A DNA stretch of 64,000 bases from an uncultured Clostridia bacterium (GTDB lineage: Bacteria > Bacillota > Clostridia > Christensenellales > UBA1242), in contig CALEWH010000022.1 of assembly GCA_937925475.1 (NCBI GenBank), positions 82,835 to 146,834 on the forward strand. Direction: 5' to 3'. Within the stretch, counting starts at the first letter, position 1. Each line of letters begins with the position of its first letter. Both the position numbers and the translations under genes were made by a program. The notes under the pieces are model-generated. The model saw only the letters and a list, made by a program, of their open reading frames with translations, had not been told where the DNA came from and did no database searches. Below are positions 1 through 15,552 of the stretch, piece after piece.

Positions 1-116
1 AGGTCCATAAGTTCTTCAAAAACCTTGTCGTTTGAAGTCTTGCTGGCAAGCAATTTTTCTACCTTTACTCCACTCAACAATGCTTCGCGGACGCTATTTC
101 TTCCTTCAATTTTCAT
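1..116 (-). CDS. rlmB: TrmH/RlmB-family 23S rRNA 2'-O-methyltransferase, first ~38 codons only (gene runs off the left edge)
   Basis: A minus-strand ATG at 114-116 opens MKIEGRNSVREALLSGVKVEKLLASKTSNDKVFEELMD..., the EGRN-V-EAL type N-terminus I associate with RlmB/YacO. It lies directly 3' of mrnC (11-nt overlap with its stop), as in the Bacillus cysS-mrnC-rlmB order. It is truncated, so it is absent from the ORF track. Confidence 0.5.
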   Translation of the reverse strand, partial: MKIEGRNSVREALLSGVKVEKLLASKTSNDKVFEELMD

Positions 117-519
117 TTTCGTTCTCCACACAAAGACTTAATACTTTGTTTAGTTTTTCAGTTTTGCCGGTCAGATACAAGTATCCGATGACCGCTTCAA
201 ATCCAGTTGCACGCCTATAATCCACCACACTTGCGTTTTTCGCTACACTGTGTGTTTTGTAATTTCGTGCACGCCTAAAAATATCTTTTTCAGTTTCGTC
301 AAGGAGTGGCATAATTTTGTCTATGACATGACTTTGTTCGGTGGCTTTTACATATGACGCGGTTATTTTGTGGAGTTCGCCACTTTTGCCCTTGCTAGAT
401 AGAGCCAACATATTTCGCACATACAATGTATGCACGCCATCACCCACAAACGCTAGCACTTGGGGATTGACAAGTCGACACTCGTTTTCACTCATATTTT
501 CAAATCCAAAAATATTCAT
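106..519 (-). CDS. mrnC: Mini-ribonuclease III (Mini-III, 23S rRNA maturation)
   Basis: This is the last 137 aa of track ORF 106..768: MNIFGFENMSENECRLVNPQVLAFVGDGVHTLYVRNML...DYRRATGFEAVIGYLYL. The LAFVGDGV and RNase III-like EAVIGYLYL motifs and the ~135-aa size fit Mini-III. I moved the start to the ATG at 517-519. The 83 upstream codons of the track ORF cross an AT-rich promoter region and are not credible. Confidence 0.8.
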   Translation of the reverse strand: MNIFGFENMSENECRLVNPQVLAFVGDGVHTLYVRNMLALSSKGKSGELHKITASYVKATEQSHVIDKIMPLLDETEKDIFRRARNYKTHSVAKNASVVDYRRATGFEAVIGYLYLTGKTEKLNKVLSLCVENENEN

Positions 520-585
520 CGTTACTCCTATACATGATATTATATCACAAAATCTTGCGATGTAAAAAGATAAAATAGTTTGTTT

Positions 586-601
586 TGTCAATATATTGAC
601 A
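586..601. promoter_or_regulatory. Perfect 16-bp palindrome TGTCAATATATTGACA carrying back-to-back TTGACA -35-like hexamers
   Basis: Read directly at 586-601 in the intergenic region upstream of mrnC. Each half is TTGACA on one strand. It could be a divergent -35 pair or an operator. Confidence 0.3.
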
Positions 602-694
602 TTCAAACACACAAAAATTATCAATTCAATTATAAATCGCTGTGTTTGTAATAACTTGGAAAGTGTCTCCATACAATATAGATAGAGGTGAAAT

Positions 695-820
695 ATGTTT
701 TTGACCATTAAAAATGTGTCAATTATTATTAGTAGTTTTCTAATTTTAAAAAATAGCCATATATCCAAATTAGGACATATGGCTTATTTATTCAAAAATA
801 CTTGTTTGTTTTGGGGCTAA
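695..820 (+). pseudogene. Relic ORF: a duplicate of the first 7 codons of cwlD fused to 34 unrelated codons
   Basis: ATGTTTTTGACCATTAAAAA at 695-714 is identical to the cwlD start at 2187-2206 and is preceded by a GAGGTG SD. The frame then reads MFLTIKNVSIIISSFLILKNSHISKLGHMAYLFKNTCLFWG*, running through a minus-strand terminator hairpin. Confidence 0.4.
745..786 (-). terminator. Rho-independent terminator after the islet ORFs
   Basis: Arms AGCCATATATCC (755-766) and GGACATATGGCT (773-784) pair with one mismatch around a 6-nt loop. A T-run follows on the minus strand (plus-strand A-run 747-753). Confidence 0.5.
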
Positions 821-991
821 AACTCTTACAATATATGCATAAGGATTTTTCTCATTTTCAGTAAGTAGAATGTCTGGCGCCAATTTTCTTAAACAAAATT
901 TGTAGTAAACTTGTTTTCCCGTTGGACGAAGTAAATCTACACAATCTTGTAAATATTTAGGCATAGGGACTATATTCTCTCGCCATTCCAC
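788..991 (-). CDS. Hypothetical 67-aa protein (islet 1)
   Basis: Track ORF with a GTG start and no convincing SD. I recognise no motif. It is AT-rich. Confidence 0.25.
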   Translation of the reverse strand: MEWRENIVPMPKYLQDCVDLLRPTGKQVYYKFCLRKLAPDILLTENEKNPYAYIVRVLAPKQTSIFE

Positions 992-1064
992 AAGGTCTAT
1001 AAATTATACTCATAATCGCACTACATCTTAAAATTAATTTTATTTTAATTTTTTATTTTGTTTT

Positions 1065-1490
1065 TTAACAATTCAGTTCAAAGTGATTTACACTATCCCA
1101 CAAGTCCCTTAAGCGTATTCCATTTATATTTACATTTTTATCAAATTCCTCAATAGAAGAATATTTTTGATAGCACTTTTCGGAATTAAACTCAAAAAAT
1201 TCAAAACCGTTAAAATTTGTATTGCCATATTTTTTGTTTTTGTACTTAAAACTTGGTTCTAAATTATCTTTAACGATAGTTATAAACTCTTCGTATGTTG
1301 GTTTTAGTTTTTGTTTCTTATCACTTAATCTTTTTGCATTATTAAATGAAGTAATATTAGGATATTTAACTTCATTTGGTTTTTTCAAAGACTCTTCACT
1401 TTGAATCCATCCGCAATTTTTGCACTTACCATTACCCCAATTATCTATTTTAACATTCTTCCCACAAACATCACATTGTTTTATATTCAT
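1065..1490 (-). CDS. Hypothetical 141-aa protein with an N-terminal CxxC...CxxC zinc-ribbon; candidate immunity/partner protein of the upstream ORF
   Basis: MNIKQCDVCGKNVKIDNWGNGKCKNCGW... carries two CxxC pairs and resembles CPCC-type Cys-rich N-termini (from memory). A strong SD AAGGAGGG sits 6 nt upstream of the ATG. The start is 15 nt after the stop of ORF 1506..1805. Confidence 0.5.
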   Translation of the reverse strand: MNIKQCDVCGKNVKIDNWGNGKCKNCGWIQSEESLKKPNEVKYPNITSFNNAKRLSDKKQKLKPTYEEFITIVKDNLEPSFKYKNKKYGNTNFNGFEFFEFNSEKCYQKYSSIEEFDKNVNINGIRLRDLWDSVNHFELNC

Positions 1491-1505
1491 GTTTTTCCCT
1501 CCTTA

Positions 1506-1805
1506 TTAAAAATAATGTTTACTTCCACTTGATTCTTTCCAATAGCCTCTGCCTCTTTGACCATTTTTCCAGTCGTGATAATGAGGTGTCTTAGGGTGAA
1601 CTTTACCATTTCCATGATCCGTAAAGTCTTTGTCTAACTTCGGTTTTCCATTTTTATCGTACCACCGTTTTTGATATGGATTTCCATTTTTATACTGTGT
1701 ATATGTAGAATTAGGAGTGCTATTGAATGGAGTTTTAGAGTTACCACGAAAATTTCCGCCACTACTAGCTCCTCTTCCACCAAAAAGTTGTATATTAATT
1801 CCCAT
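1506..1805 (-). CDS. Small basic 99-aa protein with a phage-type INIQLFGGRG N-terminus and a His-rich C-terminal half (toxin-like, speculative)
   Basis: I moved the start to the ATG at 1803-1805 (MGINIQLFGGRGASSGG...), which has a GAGG SD 6-7 nt upstream. The N(L/I)Q(L/F)F(A/G) N-terminal motif is one I recall from Firmicute phage head/scaffold proteins and polymorphic-toxin-like proteins. The C-terminal half contains DHGNGKVHPKTPHYHDWKNGQRGRGYW. Confidence 0.45.
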   Translation of the reverse strand: MGINIQLFGGRGASSGGNFRGNSKTPFNSTPNSTYTQYKNGNPYQKRWYDKNGKPKLDKDFTDHGNGKVHPKTPHYHDWKNGQRGRGYWKESSGSKHYF

Positions 1806-2037
1806 ATTTAGCCTCACTATGTTCGTAGCGATTATACGGAAACACTTTTAAGTTACCTTTCATTTCTGGAAAAGGCTTTCCATAGCATATTATAGCATCA
1901 GGATTAATAATTCCCAACATCTTTTCATAGCCAATCATAAATTCCTCTTTACATTTATGATTACCGTGAGTTGAAACCGCGACAATACTTCCCTTTTCAA
2001 CACCATCAAAACAAAAGGTTGAAGAGTGCAAAAGCAT
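1795..2037 (-). pseudogene. 80-aa ORF, probably the 3' remnant of a larger gene (islet 1)
   Basis: MLLHSSTFCFDGVEKGSIVAVSTHGNHKCKEEFMIGYEKMLGIINPDAIICYGKPFPEMKGNLKVFPYNRY... The SD is weak. It abuts the right islet boundary and overlaps the next ORF by 11 nt. The remnant status is inferred only from its size and position. Confidence 0.3.
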
Positions 2038-2186
2038 ATATTCTTCAACCTTTTAAAATTTGATTTTTTGACAATAATATATTAACACACTAAAACTAAC
2101 AATTGGAAGAAAGGGTGTCAAAATTTATATTTTTTAGCATAAACAACTTGCATTTTCTAATATACATACATTAAAAAGGATATATT

Positions 2187-2897
2187 ATGTTTTTGACCAT
2201 TAAAAAAAGGCACATTGCCATAGCAATTTGCATGATAGTTTTTTGCAGTATGATGATGGGTGTGTATTTTTCGCTTAGGCACACTTTTAGTCCCAGAACC
2301 ACTCAAACCATTGTTATTGACGCTGGACACGGCGGAAGAGATGCAGGTTGTAGTGGAATAAACACAGGCGTGAGCGAAAGCGAACTAACTCTCAGCATCG
2401 CCAAAAAACTCAAAAACCAACTTGAAAATATGGGATACAAAGTTGTTATGACACGCACAAATAGTGACGGATTGTATGCGCAAAACGCCAAAAATTACAA
2501 AAAAAGTGATATGGAAAAAAGGCGCGAAATCATACAAAAAGCCAATCCCGATATGGCCATTTCCATACATCTAAATTCTTTTCCAGTCATAACCGAAAAG
2601 GGTGCACAAGTATTTTATCAAAAGGAAAGCCAAGAAGGTTTGGCTCTTGCAACAAGTATGACCAACCAACTATCCAATCTGCTTGAAAACGCACGCAAAG
2701 AAGCGATAGGTGGCGACTATTATATACTGAAAAGTGCCGAAGTTCCTTCATGCATTGTGGAAGGCGGATTTCTCACAAACCCCGACGAAGAAGCCTTGCT
2801 TGTCACCGACGAATATCAAAATAAAATCGCTTATGCAATTATGTGCGGAGTTGTGTCCTACTTTGGACTAAACACTACAAGTGCAAAAGGTGTATAA
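2187..2897 (+). CDS. cwlD: N-acetylmuramoyl-L-alanine amidase, CwlD-like (spore cortex muramic-lactam formation)
   Basis: An N-terminal TM helix is followed by Amidase_3 motifs: VIDAGHGGRDAGCSG, SIHLNSF, EGGFLTNPDEE. The 236-aa size matches CwlD, and the organism carries ger genes. Confidence 0.8.
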   Translation: MFLTIKKRHIAIAICMIVFCSMMMGVYFSLRHTFSPRTTQTIVIDAGHGGRDAGCSGINTGVSESELTLSIAKKLKNQLENMGYKVVMTRTNSDGLYAQNAKNYKKSDMEKRREIIQKANPDMAISIHLNSFPVITEKGAQVFYQKESQEGLALATSMTNQLSNLLENARKEAIGGDYYILKSAEVPSCIVEGGFLTNPDEEALLVTDEYQNKIAYAIMCGVVSYFGLNTTSAKGV

Positions 2898-2928
2898 AAA
2901 AAGACAACATATGTTGTCTTTATTTTTT
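2896..2928. terminator. Bidirectional hairpin between convergent cwlD and tsaD
   Basis: AAGACAACAT/ATGTTGTCTT (2901-2920) is a perfect inverted repeat, flanked by an A-run on the left and a T-run on the right. Confidence 0.6.
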
Positions 2929-3990
2929 CGAATACTTTAGATTAATGCTAGGCATCGGAGTAAGAGACAAGTCTGCAAGGCCTTCGCCACTGCGAATGTT
3001 GAAATATGCTTCACAACCTATCATAGCGGCATTGTCAGTGCAAAGTCGCATAGGTGGAAAACATACTCTTACACCTTCTTTTTCGCCCCTACTAAGCAGG
3101 CTATCTCTCAAATACGAATTGGCAGCGACACCACCCGCAACAGCAAGGGTTTTTGTCTTATATTTTTTGCAAGCCATAAATGCCTTATCGACTAGCGGAT
3201 CAACAGCGTTGCATTGAAATGACGCGCAAACATCTTGGATATTAACCTCTTCATTGTGTTGTTTTTTATTGTGAAGATAGTTGATGACTGCGGTTTTTAG
3301 TCCGCTATAACTAATATTGAAATCCTTTGAAGGCTTATGTCTAACAAACTCAATATTGTTTTGACCTTGTTTTGCCATTTTATCAATAACTGGACCACCC
3401 GGATATCCAAGCCCCAAAACTTTTGCGACCTTGTCATATGCTTCGCCAATCGCATCGTCAGTGGTTGTGCCGATAAGCATATTTTTTGTGTAGTCCTTAA
3501 CATTAACAATTGCTGTGTGTCCGCCACTCACGATTAGACCTATAAATGGCGGTTTTAGGTCAGGGAAAGTGATATAATTTGCACTCATATGACCTTTGAT
3601 ATGATTTACTTTGATAAGCGGAACTTCTAGCGCATATGCAAGCGCCTTTGCATAAGTCACGCCCACCATAAGTGCGCCCACAAGTCCTGCCCCATATGTG
3701 ACAGCAACAGCATCTATTTTGTCAAGGCCTATCCCGCTTTCTCTAACAGCTTCATCCACAACATTGTTTATCGCCATGATATGATTTCGGCTTGCGACTT
3801 CGGGCACAACTCCGCCAAAGCGTTTGTGTATCTCGATTTGTGACGAGATAATATTTGACAAAACTTCTCTGCCGTTTTTGACTATCGCAACGCTTGTTTC
3901 GTCACAACTGCTCTCTATGGCAAGAATGTATATATCTTTGTCTGTTTCTATTAAGTTTTCAAATTTTTCTTTCGCTACTACTTCGTACAT
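2920..3990 (-). CDS. tsaD: tRNA N6-adenosine threonylcarbamoyltransferase TsaD (Kae1/Gcp)
   Basis: Motifs seen: [24 protein letters not shown] (His pair), GGVAANS. I prefer the start at the ATG ending at 3990 (GAGGA SD 6 nt upstream). The track start at 4017 would overlap prfB by 16 nt. Confidence 0.9.
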
Positions 3991-4001
3991 TTTTTCCTCG
4001 T

Positions 4002-5100
4002 TTATTTTACAAGACATTTTAGATAACTATATATAAAGTCGTCCAAATTGCCATTCATTACTCCGTCAAGGTCGCTTGTCTCATACAGAGTGCGCATATC
4101 TTTGACGAGTTTGTATGGACAAAAAACATAACTCCTTATTTGACTGCCCCATTCAATTTTCTTGACTTCGCCTTTTATATCTTTGATGTTTTGTTTTTTC
4201 TCTTCAAGCGCAAGTGTCACTAATTTACTCTTCAACATACTCAATGCTGTTTCTTTGTTTTGTGTTTGACTGCGCTCGTTTTGGCATGTCACAACAATGC
4301 CAGTCGGCAAGTGAGTTATCCTTATAGCACTGTCGGTCGTGTTGACATGTTGGCCACCGGCACCACTACTACGATAGGTGTCTATCTTTATGTCTTTGTC
4401 ATTGATGACTATCTCATCGTCATTTTCTATTATTGGCATAACTTCGACCGATGCAAATGATGTGTGTCTGCGTTTGTTGGCGTCAAAAGGCGATATTCGC
4501 ACAAGTCTATGCACGCCCATTTCACCTTTGAGATATCCATATGCGTTTTCGCCCGAAACTTTGAAAGTGATACTTTTATATCCCGCACCATCTCCGTCAA
4601 TATAGTCTAGCACATCGAGCCCAAATTCGTGTTTTTCAGCGTACATTTTGTACATTCTAAACAGCATACTCACCCAGTCACACGCTTCTGTTCCACCTGC
4701 ACCCGAGTGTATTTTTAATATTGCATCGCCATCGTCGTACTTTTCATTAAGCAAAACCTTTACATAAAAAGCATCAATATCTTTTGTAAGCGATGTTAGT
4801 TCGGCATTAATTTCACTTGTGTAGTCAGAATCCTCAGCACTACACATCTCTATAAAATCTTGCAAATCATTTAGTCTTCGACCATAATCCTTGACACTAT
4901 CAAGCAGTCCTTGATTGTGGCGGATTTTGCGTGAATATAAGGTGCAGAGTTCGACATTTGTATACACGCTACTATCTGCCATCTTGTTTTGCAAGTCGTC
5001 TATTTCACTTTGAAGTCGGTCACAGTCAAAGACAGGAGATAACTACATCGTAGTTATCGCGAACAGCCGAAAGTTTTTCTTTCTCGACATTGTATATCAT
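4002..5100 (-). CDS. prfB: Peptide chain release factor 2, two frames joined by a programmed +1 frameshift
   Basis: Track ORF 4002..4994 carries SPF ([15 protein letters not shown]) and GGQ ([22 protein letters not shown]). Upstream, the short frame [24 protein letters not shown] ends at CTT TGA C. A +1 shift continues [20 protein letters not shown]... into the main ORF. The ATG shares a base with the secA stop (TAATG). Coordinates I read from the printed sequence within 4981-5220 may be off by 1 (see the rejected notes). Confidence 0.9.
5025..5031 (-). other. prfB +1 frameshift heptamer CTT TGA C
   Basis: Read directly on the minus strand. It falls at codons 24-25 of the short frame, the same position class as the E. 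coli and B. subtilis prfB sites. I see no obvious internal SD upstream here. Position is +/-1 nt. Confidence 0.8.
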
Positions 5101-7787
5101 TATTTGCCCACCATACAGCAGTTTTTGTATTTTTTGCCACTTCCACATGGACATGGGTCATTTCTGCCTACAATCTTTTTGGATTTTGCAGTTTTTTCCA
5201 CACCTGTCATATTTGTAATAAGGTCAGGTTTTTTAGTGTCTTTTTGTTGTTGTTTGATTTCGATATTTAATCGATAGTTGATAAGGAACAACGCTGTTTC
5301 GCGTCTTATATCCTTACTCATACGCTCAAATGCGTCATAACTCTCTTGTTTGTATGCAATGATAGGGTCGTGGTTTCCGATAGCACGAAGACCTATCTCG
5401 CTTCTAAGCATTTCCAAAAAGTCGATGTGATCCATCCAGAATGTATCAACAACTCTCAAAAGTATATCGCGTTCTATCGCCAAATAATCAATGCCAAACT
5501 TGCTTATCTCAGCACATTTTGCTTCGTAGTTTCGCACTGCTTCGTCCGCAACAATCACCGCAAGTTCTTCAACATCAAGTCCTTCGACAATCTCTTCGGT
5601 GACATAGTTTGCGTTTTCTTTTAGTACTCGATTGTTTAGTGCATTGTTTATTGCTTCCAAATCCCACTCGTCATATGACTTGTTGGCGTCCACTGTGTCA
5701 TATATTGTGTTCATGGCAAACTCGCGGATCATATCCACTACTTCATCATGAATATTGTCGCCATCTATTACACGATTACGCTCGCCATATATAAGTTCTC
5801 TTTGTTTGTTGTTGACATCGTCAAATAATAGGACATTGTGACGGGCACTAAAATTGAAGCCCTCAATGCGTTTTTGTGCGTTTTCGATTTGTCGCGACAA
5901 CATTTTGATTTGGAAAGGAGTGTCTTCGTCGATTTTGAAGAACCTAACAATGCCTTGCATACGCTCGCCACCAAAACGGCGGATAAGTTCGTCTTCCATA
6001 GAAACAAAGAACACACTGCTACCTGGGTCACCTTGACGACCAGCACGACCACGCAACTGATTGTCTATGCGTCGTGATTCGTGACGCTCTGTGCCTAGAA
6101 TGTGTAGACCACCAAGAGTTATTACTTTTGCTTTCTCTTCGTCAGTCACCTTTTTGAAGTCTGCATAAAGTGACTTGTATTGGTCACGAATTTTTTCTAA
6201 TTCAGGATTGTCAGTAGGAAGAAGCGATGTACAAAACTCTATTTGTGCTTCGTTGTAGCCTTTATTTCTAAGTTCTTGTTTTGCAAGATACTCAGGATTG
6301 CCACCTAGCAAAATATCTGTACCACGACCAGCCATGTTTGTTGCGATAGTGACCGCGTTTAGTCTGCCGGCTTGGGCTACTATCTCACTTTCTTTCATAT
6401 GGTTTTTCGCGTTCAAAACATTGTGTTTGATTTTAGCGCGTCTTAGTGCGGTGCTTATCTCTTCACTCTTTTCTATTGTCACAGTACCTACTAGTATTGG
6501 TCTACCTGTTTCGTGAACACGCTTTACTTCTTCGACAATGGCGTCCATTTTAGCACGCTCTGTGATGTAGATTACATCAGGCGCGTCTTTTCTACGGATT
6601 GGCAAGTTTGTAGGGATAGTAACAACATCCAGATTGTATATCTTATTAAACTCACGCTCTTCGGTCTTGGCTGTACCTGTCATACCACTAAGTTTGTCAT
6701 AAAGACGGAAGAAGTTTTGGAATGTGATTGTTGCAAGGGTTTTGTTTTCGTCCCTTATCTCAACGCCTTCTTTTGCTTCGATTGCTTGGTGTAGTCCGTT
6801 GCTGTACTTTCGGCCTTCCATCAATCGACCTGTAAACTCATCGACAATTATGATTTCGCCATCTTTAACAATGTAGTTTTGGTCCTTTTTCATAATGTAT
6901 TGGGCTTTAAGTGCATTGTTGATGTGGTGGTTTAGTTCGATATTGTTGATGTCGCTTAGATTGTCAACATTGAAAAATCTCTCAGCCTTGCCAACACCAT
7001 GTTCAGTAAGTCTTATCGCCTTTTCTTTTTCGTCTATCTCATAGTCTTCTTTTCTTAGGTTTTTGGCAAAACGACTAGCGCTTTTGTAGGTTTCGCTACT
7101 CTTCATACCCCTTCCGCTGATGATAAGTGGAGTACGCGCTTCATCGATCAAAATCGAGTCGACCTCATCGACAATGGCAAAGTGATAACCACGACCTACT
7201 CTATCTTCGGCACGAGTCACCATATTGTCACGAAGATAGTCAAAACCAAGTTCGTTGTTGGTCGAATATGTGATATCGCAATTATATGCTTTTCGTTTCT
7301 CCTCAGGATCCATATCGTGTGTCGAAACACCTACTGTAAGACCCAAAAACTTGAATACTTTTCCCATCCACTCAGCGTCACGACCGGACAAGTATTCGTT
7401 GACAGTAACGATATGAACACCCTTGCCTTCAAGTGCAACAAGATATGCTGGCAAAGTTTCAGTTAGGGTTTTACCTTCACCAGTACGCATCTCAGCAATA
7501 CGGCCTTGAAACAATGCGATACCGCCAAGGATTTGCACATGAAAGTGGCGCATACCCATAACACGCGCACTTGCTTCACGCACAACAGCATATGCTTCTG
7601 GCAAAATGTCGATTAGTTTTTCACCATTTGCGATTCGTGCTTTAAAATCATCAGTACAAGCACGAAGTTGGTCATCGCTGTACGCTTTGTACTTGTCTTC
7701 AAGTGCTTCTACTTTGTGAGCAATTTTGTCTAGTTTTGCTATATTTCGAGAGTTGTCGCTCCCAAAAATCTTTGTAAATAGTCCCAT
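5100..7787 (-). CDS. secA: Preprotein translocase ATPase SecA
   Basis: 895 aa. Motifs seen: MRTGEGKTLT Walker A, VDEVDSILIDEARTPLIISG, and the C-terminal zinc motif CPCGSGKKYKNCC. Confidence 0.97.
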   Translation of the reverse strand: MGLFTKIFGSDNSRNIAKLDKIAHKVEALEDKYKAYSDDQLRACTDDFKARIANGEKLIDILPEAYAVVREASARVMGMRHFHVQILGGIALFQGRIAEMRTGEGKTLTETLPAYLVALEGKGVHIVTVNEYLSGRDAEWMGKVFKFLGLTVGVSTHDMDPEEKRKAYNCDITYSTNNELGFDYLRDNMVTRAEDRVGRGYHFAIVDEVDSILIDEARTPLIISGRGMKSSETYKSASRFAKNLRKEDYEIDEKEKAIRLTEHGVGKAERFFNVDNLSDINNIELNHHINNALKAQYIMKKDQNYIVKDGEIIIVDEFTGRLMEGRKYSNGLHQAIEAKEGVEIRDENKTLATITFQNFFRLYDKLSGMTGTAKTEEREFNKIYNLDVVTIPTNLPIRRKDAPDVIYITERAKMDAIVEEVKRVHETGRPILVGTVTIEKSEEISTALRRAKIKHNVLNAKNHMKESEIVAQAGRLNAVTIATNMAGRGTDILLGGNPEYLAKQELRNKGYNEAQIEFCTSLLPTDNPELEKIRDQYKSLYADFKKVTDEEKAKVITLGGLHILGTERHESRRIDNQLRGRAGRQGDPGSSVFFVSMEDELIRRFGGERMQGIVRFFKIDEDTPFQIKMLSRQIENAQKRIEGFNFSARHNVLLFDDVNNKQRELIYGERNRVIDGDNIHDEVVDMIREFAMNTIYDTVDANKSYDEWDLEAINNALNNRVLKENANYVTEEIVEGLDVEELAVIVADEAVRNYEAKCAEISKFGIDYLAIERDILLRVVDTFWMDHIDFLEMLRSEIGLRAIGNHDPIIAYKQESYDAFERMSKDIRRETALFLINYRLNIEIKQQQKDTKKPDLITNMTGVEKTAKSKKIVGRNDPCPCGSGKKYKNCCMVGK

Positions 7788-7899
7788 TTATACCTCGTAA
7801 TATATATTATTAACTGTATTATGATACTACAAACAGCGTTTTTTCACAATAATATTTTGTCAAAATAACCGCTAAAAATCGTTTTTTATATCGCAAAAA

Positions 7900-7933
7900 C
7901 AAAAAAAGACGAAGTGACTAGCACTTTGTCTTT
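7900..7933 (-). terminator. Rho-independent terminator after gene 7949..8992
   Basis: On the minus strand, AAAGACAAAGTG-CTAG-CACTTCGTCTTT (one G-U pair) is followed by TTTTTGTTTTT. Confidence 0.55.
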
Positions 7934-7948
7934 ATATTGTTGTATTTT

Positions 7949-8992
7949 TTAAAAATGAAGTTTGTGTCTAAGCTCGCCCATTTTTTCAGTTGTGCAGTAG
8001 CCTGCTGGGGCTTTTAGTACATCTGGAAGTCTATTGACGATACTTGCGCAAGTCATTTCTACTGTCGATGGTCTATTGATTACAACAGTTGTGTTTGGCT
8101 CGCCTTCTACTGTCCACTCGTTTTGGTCAAACTCGTCTGGTCCATACACCTTACCTATGCACTCACTTTCAATAATGATGCCTTCTTTGGTTTCGGTAGT
8201 AACAACAGCACTCATTCCAGTAGCATATCCTTTTGGAATAACCATATTTAGAGTGTCAGATTTAAGGTCTTTTTTGTAAGTTTGTGGAATACATTTTTGA
8301 GTTTGGCGTTTGACAGTAAGTCCTAGTGCTGAGCATAGCCAGCCATTAACATTCCACATATATGAAGGCAAAAACTCGCCTTTTTCTATCATTTTCTTTC
8401 TTACAGCATCGGTCACATTATCTGCTGACGCAATGTCTTTTTCAAAGTCTTTAAGGCTTAGGCCTGCGCCATGAACTTGGGCAAGTGCAATGCCATAGTC
8501 TTCGACATTATAACTGCTTTTGCCATGGATTTTCTTAATAGATTGAGTAGTTCCACACAAAGATGTGATTAGGCTACCCCACGAAACATCTTGATAACCC
8601 GAACCGCATAGTGTGCATTTGTGTTTTTTTGCAAGCTCGTCAAGTTCTTTTGTAGGAAGATACGAGTTCCAAGGATAAAATGCTTCTTCGCAAGTCGAGA
8701 TAGCATTTACGCCGTTTTTTGCACAAATAGTAAATGCATCGTGCAACTCCTTCATAAGACTGCGTGTAGTGATAATAGCAATGTCAGGTTTGATGCGTTT
8801 TAGTGATGCGTCAAGGTCGTTTACATTTTCGATTATGACCCCGCGTTTTTTACCGCCCATAACAACGCTAATGTCCTTTCCTACCAACTTTGGATTGACA
8901 TCATATGCACCTACAATTTCGCCACCTTTTTCGAAAACATAGCGCATTGTGTACACTGCCATCTTTCCACAACCAATTTGTACAACTTTCAT
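7949..8992 (-). CDS. DapB-N-like NAD(P)-dependent dehydrogenase (amine dehydrogenase / 2,4-diaminopentanoate dehydrogenase-like family)
   Basis: The N-terminal Rossmann motif is MKVVQIGCGKMAVYT. The C-terminal TCASIVNRLPDVLKAPAGYCTTEKMG resembles the NxIPxVxxAxPG tail of that family. This is from memory; the substrate is unknown. Confidence 0.5.
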   Translation of the reverse strand: MKVVQIGCGKMAVYTMRYVFEKGGEIVGAYDVNPKLVGKDISVVMGGKKRGVIIENVNDLDASLKRIKPDIAIITTRSLMKELHDAFTICAKNGVNAISTCEEAFYPWNSYLPTKELDELAKKHKCTLCGSGYQDVSWGSLITSLCGTTQSIKKIHGKSSYNVEDYGIALAQVHGAGLSLKDFEKDIASADNVTDAVRKKMIEKGEFLPSYMWNVNGWLCSALGLTVKRQTQKCIPQTYKKDLKSDTLNMVIPKGYATGMSAVVTTETKEGIIIESECIGKVYGPDEFDQNEWTVEGEPNTTVVINRPSTVEMTCASIVNRLPDVLKAPAGYCTTEKMGELRHKLHF

Positions 8993-9069
8993 ATTTTTTT
9001 CTCCTTTTCATTTTTTTATTACAAACTGTCTTTGACAGATTATAACCAATATAACAATTTTGATTACAA

Positions 9070-9414
9070 CTAATATTCGACTTTATAACTTGTAACCACA
9101 ACATCAGCCGGTGTCCCTAAGACATTTTTTATTAGAACATCGCCAATGTTTGCCGACTCGACACGCAAGTCGTTTATCTCTTTCATCACATGAAAAATCA
9201 TTTCTTTTGGGACAGGAAGAGTGGTTTTGACCGACAAAACTCCGCTGTTTTTGGTCTTCAAGATTGCGGTCACAACTCGCTCTGGATGGTCGATTTCTTG
9301 AATGGCGTAGGTTTCTCCACGCTTGCAGTTGTTTCCGCCAACAAGATATTTGTCGCCATCTTTTGTTATCTCTATCTCACAACCCATTGGACACATAATG
9401 CATGTTAGTTTCAT
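9070..9414 (-). CDS. DUF1667-domain protein (small Cys-rich subunit of the clostridial three-gene glycerol-3-phosphate oxidoreductase set)
   Basis: MKLTCIMCPMGCEIEI...GGNNCKRGETYA is typical of DUF1667. Its start overlaps the upstream gene by 4 nt. Confidence 0.7.
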   Translation of the reverse strand: MKLTCIMCPMGCEIEITKDGDKYLVGGNNCKRGETYAIQEIDHPERVVTAILKTKNSGVLSVKTTLPVPKEMIFHVMKEINDLRVESANIGDVLIKNVLGTPADVVVTSYKVEY

Positions 9415-10643
9415 ATGCTCTCCACCTCCAATACACAGTCACCTTTCACTAGGTTTTTGTCAATTTCCCACATCTGCATTTCTCCTGGAAAACCCGCCAA
9501 AACAAACTTTCTTGCGATTATTTCGTCACCCATTTTTAGTATCAAATTTCGCCTTACAATTTTGCTTTTCAATCTAAATTTGAGTGTGGCTTTGCCTTTG
9601 CCCGATGTTATAGTGTTGGGCAAAACATATCCTATTTGGTCGCCAGCACAAAGATTGTATTTAGTGCGTGAGCGCAGTTTTTCTTTTACATAGTCAGATG
9701 CATTTTTACCTGTGTCATATGCTTCCAGAGTTACATTGTCGACAAGGTCATGTACATGTAAAAAGTTTCCGCAAGCAAACACGCCATCTTCATTGGTTTG
9801 CATATGGTCGTCTACAAAAGTGCTTTTTGTCGCACGATTAAAAGGCAAATATTCGACCAAATCACGCTCAGGAACAAGCCCGACAGATAGTATCAATGCG
9901 TCACATGGCAAAAATTTTCGTGTACTTTCTATCTTGTTGTACTTTTCATCAACTTGACCATAAAACACGCCTTCGACCCTATCGCGTCCCACAACATCAA
10001 ATATTGTTGTGTGAAGCATAAGCGGAATGTTGTAGTCGTCAAGGCACTGAGTAATGTTTCGCCTTAGCCCGCTAGGAGTCGGATTTATTTCCATAACCGC
10101 ATGCACTTTTGCACCTTGCAAAGTAAGTCTTCGTGCCATTATCAGTCCGATATCGCCACTACCCAAAATGACCACATTTTTGCCCGGCAACTTGCCATAT
10201 ATGTTTACAAGTTTTTGGGCGCAACCTGCTGTAAGGACACCTACTGGGCGCGAACCTGTAAGCATAATGTTGGCAGGAGTACGCTCTCTACAACCCATTG
10301 CAAGAACAAGCGCTTTGCATTCTATTTTTTGTATTCCGTTTTCGTTTGTAATAGTTACTGTTTTGCCTTCAATTTTTGTAACAAAAGTGTTTAGCAAAAC
10401 CTTTATCTTTTTATTTGATTCGACCTTTTGTCTAAACTTATATGCGTACTCTGGACCTGTATATTCTTCGCCAAAATAATGCAGTCCAAATCCATTGTGG
10501 ATACATTGTCTAAGTATCCCACCTAAAAAAGGGTTGCGCTCGACGATTATGCACTTTGTTCCGTTTTCAGCACATCCAAGTGCCGCGCCCATTCCGGCTG
10601 GGCCACCGCCGATAATCAAAACATCAGTTTTCACTATCCACAC
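9411..10643 (-). CDS. NAD(P)/FAD-dependent pyridine-nucleotide-disulfide-type oxidoreductase (middle subunit of the trio)
   Basis: Two Rossmann motifs are present: VLIIGGGPAGMGAALGCAENG and VVILGSGDIGLIMARRL. It overlaps both neighbours. Confidence 0.8.
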   Translation of the reverse strand: MWIVKTDVLIIGGGPAGMGAALGCAENGTKCIIVERNPFLGGILRQCIHNGFGLHYFGEEYTGPEYAYKFRQKVESNKKIKVLLNTFVTKIEGKTVTITNENGIQKIECKALVLAMGCRERTPANIMLTGSRPVGVLTAGCAQKLVNIYGKLPGKNVVILGSGDIGLIMARRLTLQGAKVHAVMEINPTPSGLRRNITQCLDDYNIPLMLHTTIFDVVGRDRVEGVFYGQVDEKYNKIESTRKFLPCDALILSVGLVPERDLVEYLPFNRATKSTFVDDHMQTNEDGVFACGNFLHVHDLVDNVTLEAYDTGKNASDYVKEKLRSRTKYNLCAGDQIGYVLPNTITSGKGKATLKFRLKSKIVRRNLILKMGDEIIARKFVLAGFPGEMQMWEIDKNLVKGDCVLEVESI

Positions 10644-12060
10644 CCCCTTTCACATCTTCAACAACCCACCTGCTGTCGCCGTTTTCTTTGCGAATGTCGT
10701 CAAAGTCACAGTGGTTTTCGCGGGCAAGGATTTTGATAACTCTATCTAGGCAAAAACTGCCTTGACATCTTCCCATTCCTGCCCTTATTCGACGCTTTAT
10801 ACCGTCAGTTGTTGTAGGTCTTATTGGTCGGTCGATAGCATCCACTATCTCACCTTCGCTAATGCTCTCGCACTTACAAACTATCTTGCCATAACTTGGA
10901 TTTTGTTTGATTAGTGCCTTGACCTTACTTTCGGGCAAGTCCTTCAACATTTGATATGGTCGGATTTTCACATTGTGCAAGTCGGGATTGTATTTTAGTT
11001 TTAACAAATCCCCAACAACATATTTTGCAATCGCTGGTGCTGAGCTTAGCCCTGGCGAACATATCCCAGCAAGATTAACAATGTTTGGATTTTTTTTGCT
11101 GACTTCTATCACAAAATCATCTCCCACTACACTTCGCACTCCGGCAAATGTACGGATTGTTTTTGATAAGTCAACATTTTTTAGTAGAGTTTTGCTTTTC
11201 TCTTTAATCGAACTTAGTCCCGCATCAGTCGTGATTGTTGTGTCGTCACTTAGATACGAAGTTGGCCCTACAAGAATGTTTCCGTCCACAGTAGGAGTGA
11301 CTAGTATGCCTTTTGAGTGTTTGTCTGGCAGTGGAAATATTGTGCTATTTACTATTCCCGCTTCACTATGGTCAAGTACATAGTATTCGCCACGCTTGTA
11401 TTCGATTTTGTATTTTTCAGTGCCTAGGATTTTTGCCATTTCATTGTAGGCATATCCGCACGCATTTACAAGTTTTTTCGCCATAATAACTTTTCGGCCA
11501 TTTGAGATTATGAAATATCCGCTTGCCTTAGTTACTTTTTTAGTGTCCCAATTAAGCACAACTTCGCCACCATTGACCACACCTTCTTCTGCAAGTGCGA
11601 TAGTAAGCAGATATGGATTGACGATATATGAGTCGGGTGCAAATAGTCCACACATAACATCATCTGCTATATTTGGGATACGCTTTTTAAGGTCGTTTAC
11701 ACCTAAAAACTCCAAGTTTGAAATGCCATTTGCTCTGCCCCTTAAAAGCAAAGTTTTTACAGACTCAATGTCGCTTCCCACAACATATGCGCCTATTTTT
11801 TTAAGCGGAACTCCAACTCGCTCGCAAATTGACGGAAACATTTTGTTTCCTTCTATATTAAAACGCGCTTTCTTTGTGCCAGTGACCGCATCAAAACCCG
11901 CATGCACTATGCCCGAGTTTGCCTTGCTTGTGCCAGTGGCAACATCGCTGTTTTTCTCAATAAGTATCGGTTTGTAGCCACTTTTAGCAAGTGCGTTGAA
12001 AATGCTAGATCCCACAACACCACCGCCAAAAACGGCAACATCATATATTTTTTCCTTCAT
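10624..12060 (-). CDS. FAD-dependent oxidoreductase, GlpA/GlpD-like (glycerol-3-phosphate dehydrogenase type) with a BFD-like [2Fe-2S] C-terminus
   Basis: Motifs seen: DVAVFGGGVVGSSIFNAL...TSKANSGIVHAG, and the C-terminal CKCESISEGEIVDAI...GMGRCQGSFC. It is divergent from glpK. Confidence 0.8.
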   Translation of the reverse strand: MKEKIYDVAVFGGGVVGSSIFNALAKSGYKPILIEKNSDVATGTSKANSGIVHAGFDAVTGTKKARFNIEGNKMFPSICERVGVPLKKIGAYVVGSDIESVKTLLLRGRANGISNLEFLGVNDLKKRIPNIADDVMCGLFAPDSYIVNPYLLTIALAEEGVVNGGEVVLNWDTKKVTKASGYFIISNGRKVIMAKKLVNACGYAYNEMAKILGTEKYKIEYKRGEYYVLDHSEAGIVNSTIFPLPDKHSKGILVTPTVDGNILVGPTSYLSDDTTITTDAGLSSIKEKSKTLLKNVDLSKTIRTFAGVRSVVGDDFVIEVSKKNPNIVNLAGICSPGLSSAPAIAKYVVGDLLKLKYNPDLHNVKIRPYQMLKDLPESKVKALIKQNPSYGKIVCKCESISEGEIVDAIDRPIRPTTTDGIKRRIRAGMGRCQGSFCLDRVIKILARENHCDFDDIRKENGDSRWVVEDVKGGVDSEN

Positions 12061-12187
12061 TCATTCCTTCCCTTTTCTAAAATTATATTTATAATTTTAA
12101 TAAGTGTCAAATGTAAAATTATTATGTGCAATAAAAAGTTGTTTAGAAGCAAAATTTTGTGATATCATATAAAAAATGGAGGAACAT

Positions 12188-13645
12188 ATGTCACGATATA
12201 TCATAGGCCTTGACGAAGGCACAACTAGCGCAAGAAGTGTTGTGTATGACACAAAAACCAACAGCATTGTACTCACTGAGAAAAAGACATTTCCACAATA
12301 TTTTCCGCATCCAGGTTGGGTCGAGCAAAACGCCCAAGAACTTGTCAATGCCCAACTTTACACACTGAAAGCCGTACTCAAAAATATTGATCCGCGTGAT
12401 GTTGTGGGAATCGGGATCACCAATCAACGCGAAACAGTTATCGCTTGGGATAGTGCGACCGGCAAACCTATATACAATGCCATTGTTTGGCAATGTCGTC
12501 GCACCGCCGATTATATCGATAGCCTTAGCAAAGCCAAAAAGGCTCTAATTAAAGAAAAAACAGGGCTTATCCCTGACGCATATTTTAGTGCAAGTAAAAT
12601 GAAATGGATACTTGACAATGTCCCCGTCTCACGCCAACTTTTAAAAGAAGGTCGTCTAAGATTTGGAAATGTAAACACATATCTTGCATATGTTCTTACA
12701 GGCGAATTTGTGACCGACCCTACAAACGCATCACGCACAATGCTATATAATATCAAGACTCTCGACTGGGACGACCAACTACTCAAACTTTTCGGGATTG
12801 ACCGAAGCACCCTTCCAAAAATAGTAAACTGCGACGCCATTATCGGAAAGTGCAAAGACTTTGGCGACATATTGTTGTGTGGAATGATCGGCGACCAACA
12901 AAGCAGTCTTTTCGGACAAAGTTGTGTAAACGCAGGAATGGCAAAATCCACTTATGGCACAGGCAGTTTTTTACTGATCAACACTGGTACAAAACTCTAT
13001 GACAGTGACAAACTCCTAAACACTGTCGCATACAAAATAAAAGGACACATGTGCTATGCCATTGAAGGTAGCATTTACAGCGCATGCAATGTTATTGAGT
13101 GGTTGAAAAACAATTTGGGACTAATAGACTCACCAAAAGATATGGACAAGCTCTGCTACTCCATTCCAGACAACGAAGGAGTGTATCTAGTCCCAGCGTT
13201 CACTGGACTCGGTGCTCCATACTGGAACAGCAACGCCAAGTGTATGCTCACAGGAATGACCCTTGGCTCAACAAAAGCACATGTCGCACGAAGTGTTTTG
13301 GAAAGCATAGCCTACAACACTCGCTCGATTATTGAAGTTTTGCCAGAGAGCGTGCGCGTAAAAGAACTCAGAGTAGACGGTGGCGGAAGCAAAAACACAT
13401 TTTTATTACAATATCAATCTGACATAATAAGAAAAAAGGTTGTGAAAGGACTTAGCAGTGAAGCGACTGCTATGGGCGCAATATATATGGTTGGACTTGC
13501 AAGTGGTCTATACACACTAGACGACATAAAAAATATGTATAAAGTAGATGCAATATATGAGCCAAAACTAAAACCTACGCTAACCGACAAATACTACAAT
13601 GAGTGGCAAAACAATGTCAAAAATAGTTTGAGATTTGATAAATAG
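12188..13645 (+). CDS. glpK: Glycerol kinase
   Basis: Motifs seen: MSRYIIGLDEGTTSARSVVYD, NQRETVIAWD, GDQQSSLFGQ. I moved the start to the ATG at 12188, which has a GGAGG SD 5 nt upstream. Confidence 0.95.
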   Translation: MSRYIIGLDEGTTSARSVVYDTKTNSIVLTEKKTFPQYFPHPGWVEQNAQELVNAQLYTLKAVLKNIDPRDVVGIGITNQRETVIAWDSATGKPIYNAIVWQCRRTADYIDSLSKAKKALIKEKTGLIPDAYFSASKMKWILDNVPVSRQLLKEGRLRFGNVNTYLAYVLTGEFVTDPTNASRTMLYNIKTLDWDDQLLKLFGIDRSTLPKIVNCDAIIGKCKDFGDILLCGMIGDQQSSLFGQSCVNAGMAKSTYGTGSFLLINTGTKLYDSDKLLNTVAYKIKGHMCYAIEGSIYSACNVIEWLKNNLGLIDSPKDMDKLCYSIPDNEGVYLVPAFTGLGAPYWNSNAKCMLTGMTLGSTKAHVARSVLESIAYNTRSIIEVLPESVRVKELRVDGGGSKNTFLLQYQSDIIRKKVVKGLSSEATAMGAIYMVGLASGLYTLDDIKNMYKVDAIYEPKLKPTLTDKYYNEWQNNVKNSLRFDK

Positions 13646-13654
13646 GAGAGAAAA

Positions 13655-14539
13655 ATGGAAACAGTAGAAATTAAAATGCCAGACGAAACTCTGCGCGAAC
13701 TTTATGTATCAGATAAAATTTCCGACCCCAAAGGTGTCATTTTAATAATACATGGAATGCAAGAACACGCTATGCGTTATACACATGTCATAAAGGCATT
13801 TAATGACAATAACTATATAGTTTTTGCCTACAACCAACGGGGTCATGGACAAAAAGCCTTAGAAAGTCACACAATGGGACAAGGAAATAAAGACATTTTT
13901 GAAGAATGTGTACTTGATGCTCAATGTATTTGTAAATACATCAAATCAGTATATCCCGATCTTCCTTTGTATGTTTATGGACACTCCTTTGGTAGTTTTG
14001 TTACACAAAGGCTTATGCAAATTTGCGATATTCCTGCAAAGTGGGTTTTGTCCGGCACAACCTGTGGTGATGCAATGTTGTACAAACTTGCGTATGTAGT
14101 AGCAAAACTATCTGCCATAAAAGGAAAACAAAAGCCCGCGACTCTAATTGAAAAGATGTCATTTGACTCGTATAAAAAACATTTTCCAGATAAAAGTTGG
14201 TTGTCACGCGACCCTAATGTGCAAAAAAGATTTGACGAAGACGAGTTGTGTGGAGTGCCATTTCCAGTTAGTTTTTATATTAGCCTTTTCTCACATCTTA
14301 AAAAACTTAACAAGGGCATAAAAAATATAAAGAAAAACACAAAAGTTTTGCTTATAGCGGGCACTGATGACCCAGTAGGAAATTATGCAAAAGGACCAAG
14401 CAAACTTCATTCATTGTATTTGAAAGCAGGATTGGATTCGCACTTAAAACTATATGATAAAGGTCGACACGAACTTCACAACGAACTAAATCGCCAAGAA
14501 GTCCTAAACGATGTAATCGACTTTTACAATTTGAAATAA
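13655..14539 (+). CDS. Alpha/beta hydrolase, lysophospholipase / monoacylglycerol-lipase-like
   Basis: Motifs seen: IIHGMQEHAMRY and the nucleophile elbow GHSFGS. It starts 9 nt after glpK. Confidence 0.7.
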   Translation: METVEIKMPDETLRELYVSDKISDPKGVILIIHGMQEHAMRYTHVIKAFNDNNYIVFAYNQRGHGQKALESHTMGQGNKDIFEECVLDAQCICKYIKSVYPDLPLYVYGHSFGSFVTQRLMQICDIPAKWVLSGTTCGDAMLYKLAYVVAKLSAIKGKQKPATLIEKMSFDSYKKHFPDKSWLSRDPNVQKRFDEDELCGVPFPVSFYISLFSHLKKLNKGIKNIKKNTKVLLIAGTDDPVGNYAKGPSKLHSLYLKAGLDSHLKLYDKGRHELHNELNRQEVLNDVIDFYNLK

Positions 14540-14590
14540 ATATTCAAATAAAAAATTTCAAATATAAACATAAATGAAAATATTGATAAT

Positions 14591-14672: not shown

Positions 14673-14691
14673 ATAAAAGTATAAGCATCAA

Positions 14692-15492: not shown

Positions 15493-15552
15493 AACTTATT
15501 ATAATTTGAAGTGAACCCCAAATTTTGTGCAAACTTCATTTTGGCATTATTA

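Follow-up and report, generated by a model that had tools for sequence, protein, structure and literature searches.

The window, that is, the whole 64,000-nt stretch of DNA analysed here, carries near its left end the gene mrnC (106-522, minus strand), which encodes a Mini-III type RNase III (Ribonuclease_3 domain, E 8e-22) and has cwlD as its syntenic neighbour in both G021 and G008, two genomes of the same genus. A cwlD-like gene (2187-2897, plus strand) is also present and encodes an intact 236-aa N-acetylmuramoyl-L-alanine amidase (Amidase_3, E 5e-45), which scores 193.9 bits against the TIGR02883 spore_cwlD model, slightly below its cut-off of 221.55. The two genes are separated by a spacer (523-693, plus strand) and by an insert of 1,471 bp (715-2185), hereafter the islet, which lies between two copies of a direct repeat at the cwlD start.

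The direct repeat TATGTTTTTGACCATTAAAAA is 21 nt long and occurs at 694-714 and 2186-2206 (both plus strand) with a spacing of 1492, the two copies being identical as originally predicted; its 20-mer core, ATGTTTTTGACCATTAAAAA, occupies 695-714 and 2187-2206, and the preceding T makes up the 21 nt. The repeat covers the cwlD start and begins one base before the ATG. With up to two mismatches allowed, the 20-mer gave two matches in the window against 0.01 expected from shuffles, and a count over the whole 1.02-Mb assembly, which the original prediction had proposed, returned these two exact copies only, together with one unrelated 2-mismatch site on another contig. The 21-mer had three chance matches in 596 Gb of species genomes and no exact match in IMG/VR, and the shuffle, genome, IMG/VR and species-genome counts together rule it out as a frequent genomic word. 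The right copy, which is attR-like, is the functional start of the intact amidase gene, as had been proposed. The left copy, which is attL-like, represents the displaced original cwlD start; it was correctly described as standing behind its own GAGGTG ribosome-binding site (685-690) and running into unrelated codons, for it opens a relic 41-codon ORF (695-820, plus strand) that is CwlD-like through codon 6, is unlike CwlD thereafter and has no family match.

The islet is more AT-rich than its surroundings (G+C 0.24-0.35 inside vs 0.37-0.45 in the flanks), all of its sizeable ORFs lie on the minus strand, and its interior (715-2186) is single-copy in the genome, in line with the AT-rich, minus-strand segment that had been predicted. 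The junction DNA behind the left repeat (715-754) has no homolog found, and homology to the corresponding island of G021 stops at 792. It is followed by an intrinsic terminator on the minus strand (784-755), composed of a 12-bp stem and then a T run, so that the islet does end in a terminator of its own, behind a radical SAM pseudogene. This pseudogene (788-1015, minus strand; PA0069/Rv2578c-like) was recognised by tblastn to the radical SAM proteins of G018 and G021, and consists of the N-terminal 18 codons (1013-960) fused out of frame to the C-terminal 56 codons (958-791), the latter appearing as a 67-aa ORF at 788-991.

Two intact small genes occupy the middle of the islet, and both are under purifying selection. 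The first (1065-1490, minus strand) encodes a 141-aa zinc-ribbon protein of the phrog_3711 family (PHROG E 4.6e-8), which shares 91% amino acid identity with its G021 counterpart (dN/dS 0.12) and is possibly an immunity or partner protein. The second (1506-1817, minus strand) encodes a 103-aa protein with an N-terminal NIQLFGGRG motif (phrog_21033, E 2e-16), which is 87% identical to the G021 protein (dN/dS 0.11). The 103-aa protein also matches phrog_18811, annotated as toxin (E 4e-6), and "toxin-like" is in this case a PHROG-based label: searches for a toxin domain or fold gave no Pfam, NCBIfam or PDB sequence match and no significant PDB fold match, and the AlphaFold model is all-beta with beta-hairpins (pLDDT 76).

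The remaining part of the islet is made up of truncated genes. A ParB-N/DUF4417 gene (1795-2037, minus strand) has lost its 5' part and keeps the last ~76 codons, equivalent to residues 274-349 of the 349-aa G021 protein and to positions 117-181 of the 183 positions of Pfam DUF4417. Next to it is a terS promoter/leader remnant (2013-2135, minus strand) with a conserved hairpin (2013-2054), which is 71% identical to G021 L017 10177-10293 and aligns with the terS-upstream regions of G054 and G021. A deletion of 1,316 bp adjoins this leader remnant and has taken away terS and the N-terminal part of the ParB gene, with junction microhomology TTTTTG; a second deletion, of 584 bp, is internal to the radical SAM gene and corresponds to G021 L017 12682-13265, with junction microhomology AAAyATTTrC. 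Both deletion junctions thus show microhomology. The 50 nt upstream of the right repeat copy (2136-2185, plus strand), which form the present cwlD 5' region and are probably element-derived, contain an AAAGGA ribosome-binding site (2175-2180) and are homologous neither to the ancestral spacer nor to the end of the island in G021.

The empty site expected for such an insertion was found in G021 and G008, which are sister species of the window genome rather than members of the same species: mrnC is followed there by a 130-142-bp spacer, a strong ribosome-binding site and a cwlD gene with a single start. The empty sites identify the left copy as the ancestral start of cwlD, and all DNA from there to the right copy as the insertion. 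Spacer 523-693, with the original cwlD promoter region and the GAGGTG site, holds the same position and falls in the same length class as the empty-site spacers. As well, in a comparison with the sequence upstream of cwlD in G053, the nearest species, similarity was seen for the 60 nt before the left copy (z 4.1) but not for the DNA preceding the right copy (z 1.3). Conspecific genomes were not found by exact-protein look-ups of CwlD and MrnC, and a metagenome scan for a conspecific CwlD returned distant relatives only (at most 42% identity).

The islet is of recent horizontal origin and is a degraded copy of a mobile cassette. Its DNA is 89% identical to the island of G021, located at a different locus, over 1,072 bp, in contrast to 67-69% for the mrnC and cwlD flanks, and dN is 0.04-0.12 for the cassette vs 0.405 for cwlD. 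The mobile-cassette content and the empty sites together bear out the original view that foreign, phage-like DNA was inserted at the first cwlD codons. The window genome is a 35-contig metagenome-assembled genome, and the repeat length equals a common smallest k-mer size, which might indicate that the assembler joined different strains at a shared 21-mer (k = 21). Such an artefact is very improbable, since it needs two independent false joins at one 21-mer, and the left junction, in which the 20-mer runs into the cassette terminator, could not have been assembled unless reads contained it. In addition, a cassette between target repeats recurs in many independent assemblies, and the remnants in the window are collinear with G021 in order and orientation.

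The full cassette consists of terS, ParB-N/DUF4417, the 103-aa protein, the 141-aa protein and the radical SAM gene, in this order, and in a variant ParB-N plus a methyltransferase-like gene replaces ParB-N/DUF4417. It is present in 44 of 80 loci from other genomes, in unrelated host contexts (at least 44 Christensenellales genomes). The intact island of G021 is 3,556 bp long, lacks an integrase and lies between perfect 56-nt repeats that are the exact 3' end of tRNA-Leu(CAA). At least 15 cassettes are bracketed by exact repeats of 17-93 nt, many of which are tRNA 3' ends and others gene ends; the tRNA targets are the 3' ends of tRNA-Leu(CAA), tRNA-Lys(CTT), tRNA-Ile(GAT) and tRNA-Trp, with identity blocks of 29-93 nt, and the tRNA repeats end exactly at CCA. 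Exact repeats reported by the automated screen in several loci (e.g., L111, L077, L051, L062 and L069) were rejected as clean target duplications, as they belong to longer imperfect repeats, which are promoter-leader units or integrase arm-site clusters. A query with terS found nothing in IMG/VR. The radical SAM query detected one phage contig in IMG/VR and one GenBank phage, Dulem virus 36, both of which share the order ParB-MT-rSAM just upstream of the terminase genes; the terS-first order was absent in the phages seen. PADLOC gave only partial matches of the ParB-N/methyltransferase type, and the cassette was not retained as a defence system.

Neither the islet nor the intact cassettes carry a transposase according to Pfam and PHROG scans, and no terminal inverted repeats were found at the islet ends, so an insertion sequence or DNA transposon was rejected. 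Instead of a fixed short target duplication, the repeats range from 17 to 93 nt across the cassette family, and conservation of the ends among cassettes at different sites stops short of the repeats. ORF, Pfam and PHROG searches of 715-2186 likewise revealed no recombinase gene, integrase or integrase fragment in or beside the islet, which agrees with the first reading of the sequence on all three points. Motifs of arm type common to both inner islet ends (GTGTCAA, TTTTCTAAT) were considered and dismissed as not significant (p about 0.15).

The relatives, in contrast, possess a family integrase, a PF00589 tyrosine recombinase. Intact copies are found in L051 (together with an HTH_17 excisionase), L060 and L092; L062 has a frameshifted copy, L048 keeps a 74-aa fragment, and G021 and L064 have none. 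Locus L044 retains a 145-aa C-terminal fragment beside the tRNA-Leu site used in G021, with the same 56-nt repeat limits, and arm-type repeats adjoin the family integrases. Judged from their sequences, these copies form a decay series running from intact through frameshifted and fragmentary to absent, and the fragments persisting in relatives show that decay gave rise to at least some of the integrase-less copies. Integrase and terS occur together in compact islands in L060, L092 and L051, and both have been lost from the window copy. In the collections searched, including IMG/VR and the species genomes, neither an integrase-bearing relative integrated at cwlD nor an attP carrying the 21-mer was found, and the window genome contains elsewhere only a divergent integrase-like gene.

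It could alternatively be speculated that the cassette is mobile without an integrase of its own, the islet being a defunct copy. Integrases of helper phages or islands would then act on the cassette in trans, which would make it a cis-mobilizable, satellite-like element packaged via terS, or else a novel activity of the cassette proteins would insert it and duplicate 17-93 nt of the target. Most of the 44 full cassettes have no integrase within 8 kb, their genes are intact, and the radical SAM proteins of integrase-less cassettes are conserved (76-88% amino acid identity across genera). The minimal cassettes L049 and L053 have their repeats within 0-12 nt of the radical SAM stop codon, and at a distance of about 6-100 nt from the terS promoter; this leaves no room for a lost integrase. 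Furthermore, a repeat-bracketed cassette is nested in a larger tRNA-flanked integrase island in L062, and the phages mentioned above have the ParB-MT-rSAM module without the terS-first order. However, the repeats correspond to the ends of genes and the 3' ends of tRNAs, which is the pattern of integrase systems and not that of random staggered cuts, and some of them are the arm-site clusters or promoter-leader units already described. Integrase fragments also show that at least some integrase-less copies are products of decay, and no conserved terminal sequences were seen among cassettes. We therefore regard this explanation as quite unlikely for the islet. For the family, a related reading, that terS - ParB-N - (methyltransferase-like or DUF4417 + small proteins) - radical SAM cassettes are undescribed minimalist satellites or hitchhiking islands of Christensenellales, is tentative and rather doubtful; most copies would then sit integrase-less between att-type repeats at varied tRNA and gene ends, with the islet as one dead copy, and helper phages would move and package them in trans with their own integrases and a TerS-redirected terminase.

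We consider it fairly probable that the islet is an att-flanked, CIME-like relic, produced by site-specific integration into cwlD codons 1-7, loss of the integrase and later deletions. A tyrosine integrase, either the element's own or that of a co-resident relative, would have recombined attP with attB over the first seven cwlD codons. The attP is proposed to have borne a 21-nt copy of the cwlD start behind the element's own promoter and ribosome-binding site, for which reason integration would have rebuilt a complete cwlD at the right junction and stranded at the left junction the original start together with the promoter and strong ribosome-binding site that belonged to it. Under this attP/attB model the 21-nt repeat would be the att identity block, and it is most likely the integration scar of the islet. 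The integrase module would have been lost after insertion, and deletions between short repeats would then have eliminated terS along with the larger part of the ParB gene and, in the radical SAM gene, the middle portion, leaving two intact small genes between two att-like repeats, as in a cis-mobilizable element. Both the action of an integrase in making the insertion and the element-borne nature of the right copy are what we infer here. A repeat that starts one base before the ATG, together with a usable AAAGGA site, is what would be expected if selection had favoured an element that restores its target's coding sequence, comparable to the tRNA repeats with their exact end at CCA. The original prediction ascribed the regeneration of cwlD to duplication or microhomology repair; cwlD is indeed intact, but such a repair route is less likely than an att core with an element-borne 5' end, given relatives that are integrase islands with target-end repeats. 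Those intact relatives also make a tyrosine integrase the likely answer to the insertion mechanism, which had been left unexplained.

Some observations at cwlD in related species do not favour a single att site. In four species of the genus (G000, G018, G053 and G054) the cassette lies directly against the 5' end of cwlD, with differing breakpoints, including that of the nearest species, G053, and a repeat search gave no matching far-end repeat for the cwlD-adjacent cassettes of G018 and G054. In G054 one cassette is flanked by a direct repeat of 750 bp at 96% identity (187 bp of the cwlD 5' end, the intergenic region and terS), which is the expected product of single-crossover homologous integration. 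For the G054 duplication and the G053 breakpoint, recombination of the homologous or illegitimate kind is a better fit than a single fixed att site. Donor DNA with a cassette next to cwlD might accordingly have entered by transformation or transduction, without a site-specific recombinase: a linear fragment would recombine homologously in cwlD and beyond it on the right and join illegitimately at cwlD +20 on the left, or a circularised fragment would integrate in Campbell style via the short shared cwlD start, and in either form the overlap would yield the 21-nt duplication. A competence gene, comFC, is present, and the similar footprint predicted at 14.6-15.6 kb proved real, with an 87-nt repeat whose copies are 95% identical, as expected if one copy is donor-derived. 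Nevertheless, 21 bp does not exceed the minimum length that efficient homologous recombination usually requires, the donor must have carried the identical 21-mer, at which the nearest species differs in 2 of 20 positions, and a repeat starting exactly at the start codon with a ready ribosome-binding site would be a coincidence. With classic integrase signatures elsewhere in the cassette family, import of this kind is unlikely.

The site-specific relic favoured here can be compared with several known systems. According to a previous study, CIMEs are decayed integrative elements that keep attL and attR and have lost their integration and transfer genes (PMC5704250). Similarly, the islet has target-end direct repeats, an empty site in related genomes and no integration or transfer genes in 715-2186 (ORF list, Pfam and PHROG scans); its family has a tyrosine integrase with or without an excisionase, including the fragment at the tRNA-Leu site of G021, and tandem accretion is seen in the relatives G054 and G006. 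Unlike CIMEs, which are defined for streptococcal ICE/IME derivatives, the islet comes from a phage-module island (terS, ParB-N, radical SAM), its cargo is itself further decayed, and the att function of its repeats is putative.

The relatives also resemble PICI-like or tRNA islands in entering tRNA 3' ends and in having int, in some cases with xis, as well as a small terminase subunit of phage type. However, the cassette islands are very small (2.4-7.6 kb), no primase, replicase, repressor or capsid-remodelling genes were recognised in them, their core of ParB-N, methyltransferase-like or DUF4417 and radical SAM genes stands outside the described satellite families, and the islet targets the 5' end of a protein gene. 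Features shared with prophage remnants are Terminase_4 terS in relatives, ParB-N/DUF4417, reported as a phage-enriched fusion (bioRxiv 10.1101/2025.10.10.680097), and the ParB-MT-rSAM order of phages. Unlike prophage debris, the same 4-5-gene unit is intact in those 44 or more genomes without structural, lysis or replication genes, and this recurrence and the terS-first order look like a discrete island family. The islet is therefore best described, on sequence grounds, as a decayed and apparently immobile remnant of a small phage-derived integrative island family circulating among gut Christensenellales.

Intervening elements are present in sporulation genes, such as skin in sigK and SPbeta in spsM, where they split their gene and excision must restore it. 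The islet is likewise a mobile element within a sporulation-associated gene of a Firmicute, whereas cwlD is complete here, since its promoter, ribosome-binding site and first codons would all have been supplied anew by the element, and excision is neither needed nor possible. The gene is now predicted to run from element-supplied expression signals, and the ancestral promoter and ribosome-binding site would drive the junk ORF.

As a relic, the islet belongs to an ordinary kind of genome archaeology, and the unusual repeat at the start of the gene is accounted for by the scar that a mobile island left there. It also illustrates, in nature, how an integrative element can replace the 5' end of a target gene, where the 3' end is the usual one. 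Moreover, the comparison exposes a compact and highly conserved phage-module cassette that moves between uncultured, small-genome gut Christensenellales species. Occurring at numerous sites, with every stage of decay represented, the cassette could mark phage-host links, and it is a possible entry point to the mobile elements of a clade without genetic tools.

The 20-mer ATGTTTTTGACCATTAAAAA occurs at 695-714 and 2187-2206 of the window (two matches, against 0.01 expected by chance), and a genome-wide count found no further exact copy in the whole assembly (1.02 Mb, 35 contigs, 95%-complete), so it is not a frequent word. The repeat, which measures 21 nt when the preceding T is counted and has a spacing of 1,492 bp, has no match in IMG/VR and three matches, by chance, in 596 Gb of species genomes. 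That it stems from an assembly chimera (k = 21) is very unlikely. The left copy lies downstream of GAGGTG and opens a 41-codon ORF that departs from the CwlD sequence after six codons, while the right copy is the start of a 236-aa Amidase_3/CwlD-like gene. Between them lies an islet (715-2185) whose interior is single-copy in this genome and has a G+C content of 0.24-0.35, compared with 0.37-0.45 in the flanks, with a minus-strand terminator at 784-755. All factual statements of the original prediction about the repeat, the islet and its ORFs hold in repeat, G+C, ORF and terminator checks.

In two other species genomes of the genus, G021 and G008, mrnC and cwlD lie side by side in divergent orientation, with about 130-142 bp between them that end in a strong ribosome-binding site, and there is only one cwlD start (MFINIKLK and MFVNIKLK, respectively), which is the empty site that had been predicted. 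At the empty site, mrnC homology ends about 319 bp before cwlD homology begins; in the window this gap is 1,839 bp. The left copy therefore marks where cwlD originally began, and the added DNA comprises 715-2185 and one of the repeat copies. The sequence preceding the left copy is similar to what lies upstream of cwlD in G053, the nearest species (z 4.1), unlike the sequence preceding the right copy (z 1.3), and is presumably the ancestral cwlD promoter region. The empty sites, together with the cassette-derived content described below, support the proposal that a foreign segment was inserted and regenerated cwlD. In G013, an unrelated insert of about 1.4 kb (L024, C3:201500-206000) with a 260-aa ORF lacking a Pfam match lies between mrnC and cwlD; across the genus, the mrnC-cwlD spacer acts as a hotspot for recurrent insertion.

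The islet's four minus-strand ORFs correspond to portions of a cluster found intact in G021, where it lies 42 kb from the native mrnC-cwlD pair. This cassette encodes a P27-family terminase small subunit (terS, 143 aa), a ParB-N/DUF4417 protein (349 aa), a 103-aa protein, a zinc-ribbon protein (about 141-183 aa) and a radical SAM protein of the PA0069/Rv2578c type. Identity to G021 reaches 89% over 1,072 bp (window 948-2016) and 80% at 792-958, whereas mrnC and cwlD are only 67-69% identical; likewise, dN is 0.04-0.12 for the cassette and 0.405 for cwlD. The cassette is thus much closer than the core genes, indicating recent horizontal arrival in at least one of the two lineages. Compared with the G021 cluster, the window copy carries a 1,316-bp deletion (terS and the first 273 ParB codons; TTTTTG at the junction) and a 584-bp deletion within the radical SAM gene (AAAyATTTrC at the junction), leaving only the 103-aa and 141-aa genes intact. 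Since dN/dS against G021 is 0.11-0.17 for all islet segments, truncated ones included, the decay is recent relative to the window-G021 divergence.

The 'toxin' label of the 103-aa protein (gene at 1506-1817, minus strand) has one PHROG match (E 4e-6) as its sole basis, and its AlphaFold model (17 sequences, pLDDT 76), a set of beta-hairpins, gave no significant PDB match. The protein and its homologs share an N-terminal (N/F)(I/L)QLFGG(R/G)G, a glycine/serine stretch and invariant R47, G53, D58, H70, P74, H75 and H77 (...KRWYD..G....DKDYTDHGN..KHP.TPHYHDW). In several species, the cassette promoter is separated from the terS ribosome-binding site by a conserved hairpin (AAAGGTTGrAGA...TCTTCAACCTTTT; window 2013-2054; G021 locus L017 10253-10294; G054 locus L029 about 1780-1825), which may be an attenuator or protein-binding site.

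Within the genus, 7 of 41 species genomes have the radical SAM gene, with additional remnants, and the cassette site varies by species: tRNA-Leu in G021, between dnaN and recF in G006, between rsmF and a DUF4097 gene in G001, near glmM in G024, and adjoining the cwlD 5' end in G018, G054 and G053. When one genome per species was scanned, the radical SAM gene turned up at 80 loci (50-100% aa identity), most of them in MAGs named Christensenella, Christensenellaceae or Clostridia; the full cassette is present at 44, with ParB-N plus a 187-aa methyltransferase-like protein at 35 and ParB-N/DUF4417 at nine. Flanking genes are not conserved from locus to locus. Exact direct repeats of 17-93 nt surround at least 15 full cassettes, many being 3' ends of tRNA-Leu(CAA), tRNA-Lys(CTT), tRNA-Ile(GAT) or tRNA-Trp, sometimes reaching into the downstream terminator, and others the last codons of a protein gene plus its terminator. 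The G021 island (3,556 bp, no recombinase) lies between two perfect 56-nt repeats, the exact 3' end of tRNA-Leu(CAA) from anticodon loop to CCA. In two species (L049 6365-8850; L066 2430-2480), one and the same 873-aa host gene has the cassette at its 3' terminator, but in opposite orientations. The roughly 6-kb composite island of G006 (L021, G006:C3:20000-36000, 5300-11200) holds a full cassette, additional small genes and a second radical SAM N-terminal fragment; its 72-nt near-perfect direct repeat (5358-5429/8111-8182) takes in the start of a 251-aa gene, duplicating a gene start in the same style as at the window's islet.

The family has a tyrosine integrase (PF00589 with SAM-like N-domains), accompanied by repeated arm-type motifs. 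It is intact at L051 (with an HTH_17 excisionase, adjoining tRNA-Lys) and, directly upstream of terS, at L060 and L092; frameshifted and split at L062; a 145-aa C-terminal fragment at L044, immediately before an intact tRNA-Leu(CAA) and sharing the limits of its 56-nt repeat with G021; a 74-aa fragment at L048; and absent from G021 and L064. This series shows that integrase-less, repeat-flanked cassettes, which fit the definition of cis-mobilizable elements (PMC5704250), arise through loss of the integrase module. Complete tRNA-Lys(CTT) islands of about 7.6 kb (L062 300-8200; L051 6300-14022) comprise the cassette, three unknown genes, the excisionase and the integrase. They carry TTATTAGGCAA-type repeat clusters at both ends and directly 3' of the radical SAM gene, so that the cassette itself is bracketed by a 39-60-nt repeat within the island.

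An integrase-type insertion at the cwlD start is the mechanism we favour, as reasonably probable: a family island would have entered an attB within cwlD codons 1-7 by site-specific recombination, bringing no more target sequence than was needed to restore the gene, with decay following afterwards. The identity block begins one base before the ATG, and the element-derived DNA upstream supplies a properly spaced AAAGGA and AT-rich promoter-like sequence; this mirrors the tRNA-targeting relatives, in which the block stops exactly at the tRNA 3' end. The main rival, recombinational import from a donor already carrying the cassette beside cwlD, is rather unlikely. Consistent with import, the hotspot upstream of cwlD has differing breakpoints in the window's genome, G053, G018 and G054, besides the unrelated insert of G013, and a 750-bp repeat in G054 is 96% identical, as is typical of single-crossover homologous integration. 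This direct repeat (first 187 bp of cwlD, intergenic region and terS) flanks the first of two tandem cassettes beside cwlD (L029, G054:C14:7000-24000, 1500-5600), which encodes terS, a DUF488-like protein, a 404-aa phage DAM-like/GNAT-like protein and a 288-aa ParB-like protein; the second encodes terS, ParB-DUF4417, small proteins, radical SAM and DUF1848. The tandem arrangement looks like single-crossover homologous integration or accretion. Less likely still is a trans-mobilised or self-inserting cassette, for which minimal cassettes with repeats abutting the radical SAM stop codon (e.g., L049, L053) speak. The relic is now stranded, since the window's genome has no terS and its only recombinases are an Xer-like one and, on contig C8, a divergent integrase-like gene. 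The latter (C8:12165-13274; L197 6166-7275), the genome's only non-Xer tyrosine-recombinase-like gene, is a 369-aa ORF with Phage_int_SAM_3 and partial Phage_integrase domains, followed by a tandem duplication of about 350 bp (88-93% identical).

A second footprint of this style, noticed at 14.6-15.6 kb, proved real: islet 2 (14591-15639) has 87-nt direct repeats, 95% identical, in which the 3' end of comFC is duplicated together with its terminator. Its cargo is one 242-aa ORF, in which the last ~78 residues of a DAHP synthase are fused to a NUDIX hydrolase; the NUDIX part has relatives (71-75% nt) elsewhere in the genomes of G049, G013, G009 and G021. Window positions 2177-7907 (80% nt) and 15571-17008 (76%) are collinear with G053, which has only 0.6 kb in place of the 7.7 kb at 7908-15570; the glycerol-utilisation module and islet 2 thus form a lineage-specific block beside the comFC 3' end.

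ParB-fold fusions to DUF4417 or methyltransferases are reported to be phage-enriched (bioRxiv 10.1101/2025.10.10.680097). The ParB, methyltransferase-like and radical SAM genes (53-59% aa identity) occur in the same order, just upstream of the terminase genes, in one IMG/VR contig and in Dulem virus 36, whose 53.8-kb circular genome comes from lemur faeces. In contrast, the chromosomal cassettes have a P27-type terS first and otherwise nothing phage-like, and they have the look of a distinct island family, not of random prophage debris. As a relic the islet is ordinary; the cassette family is a by-product of modest interest.
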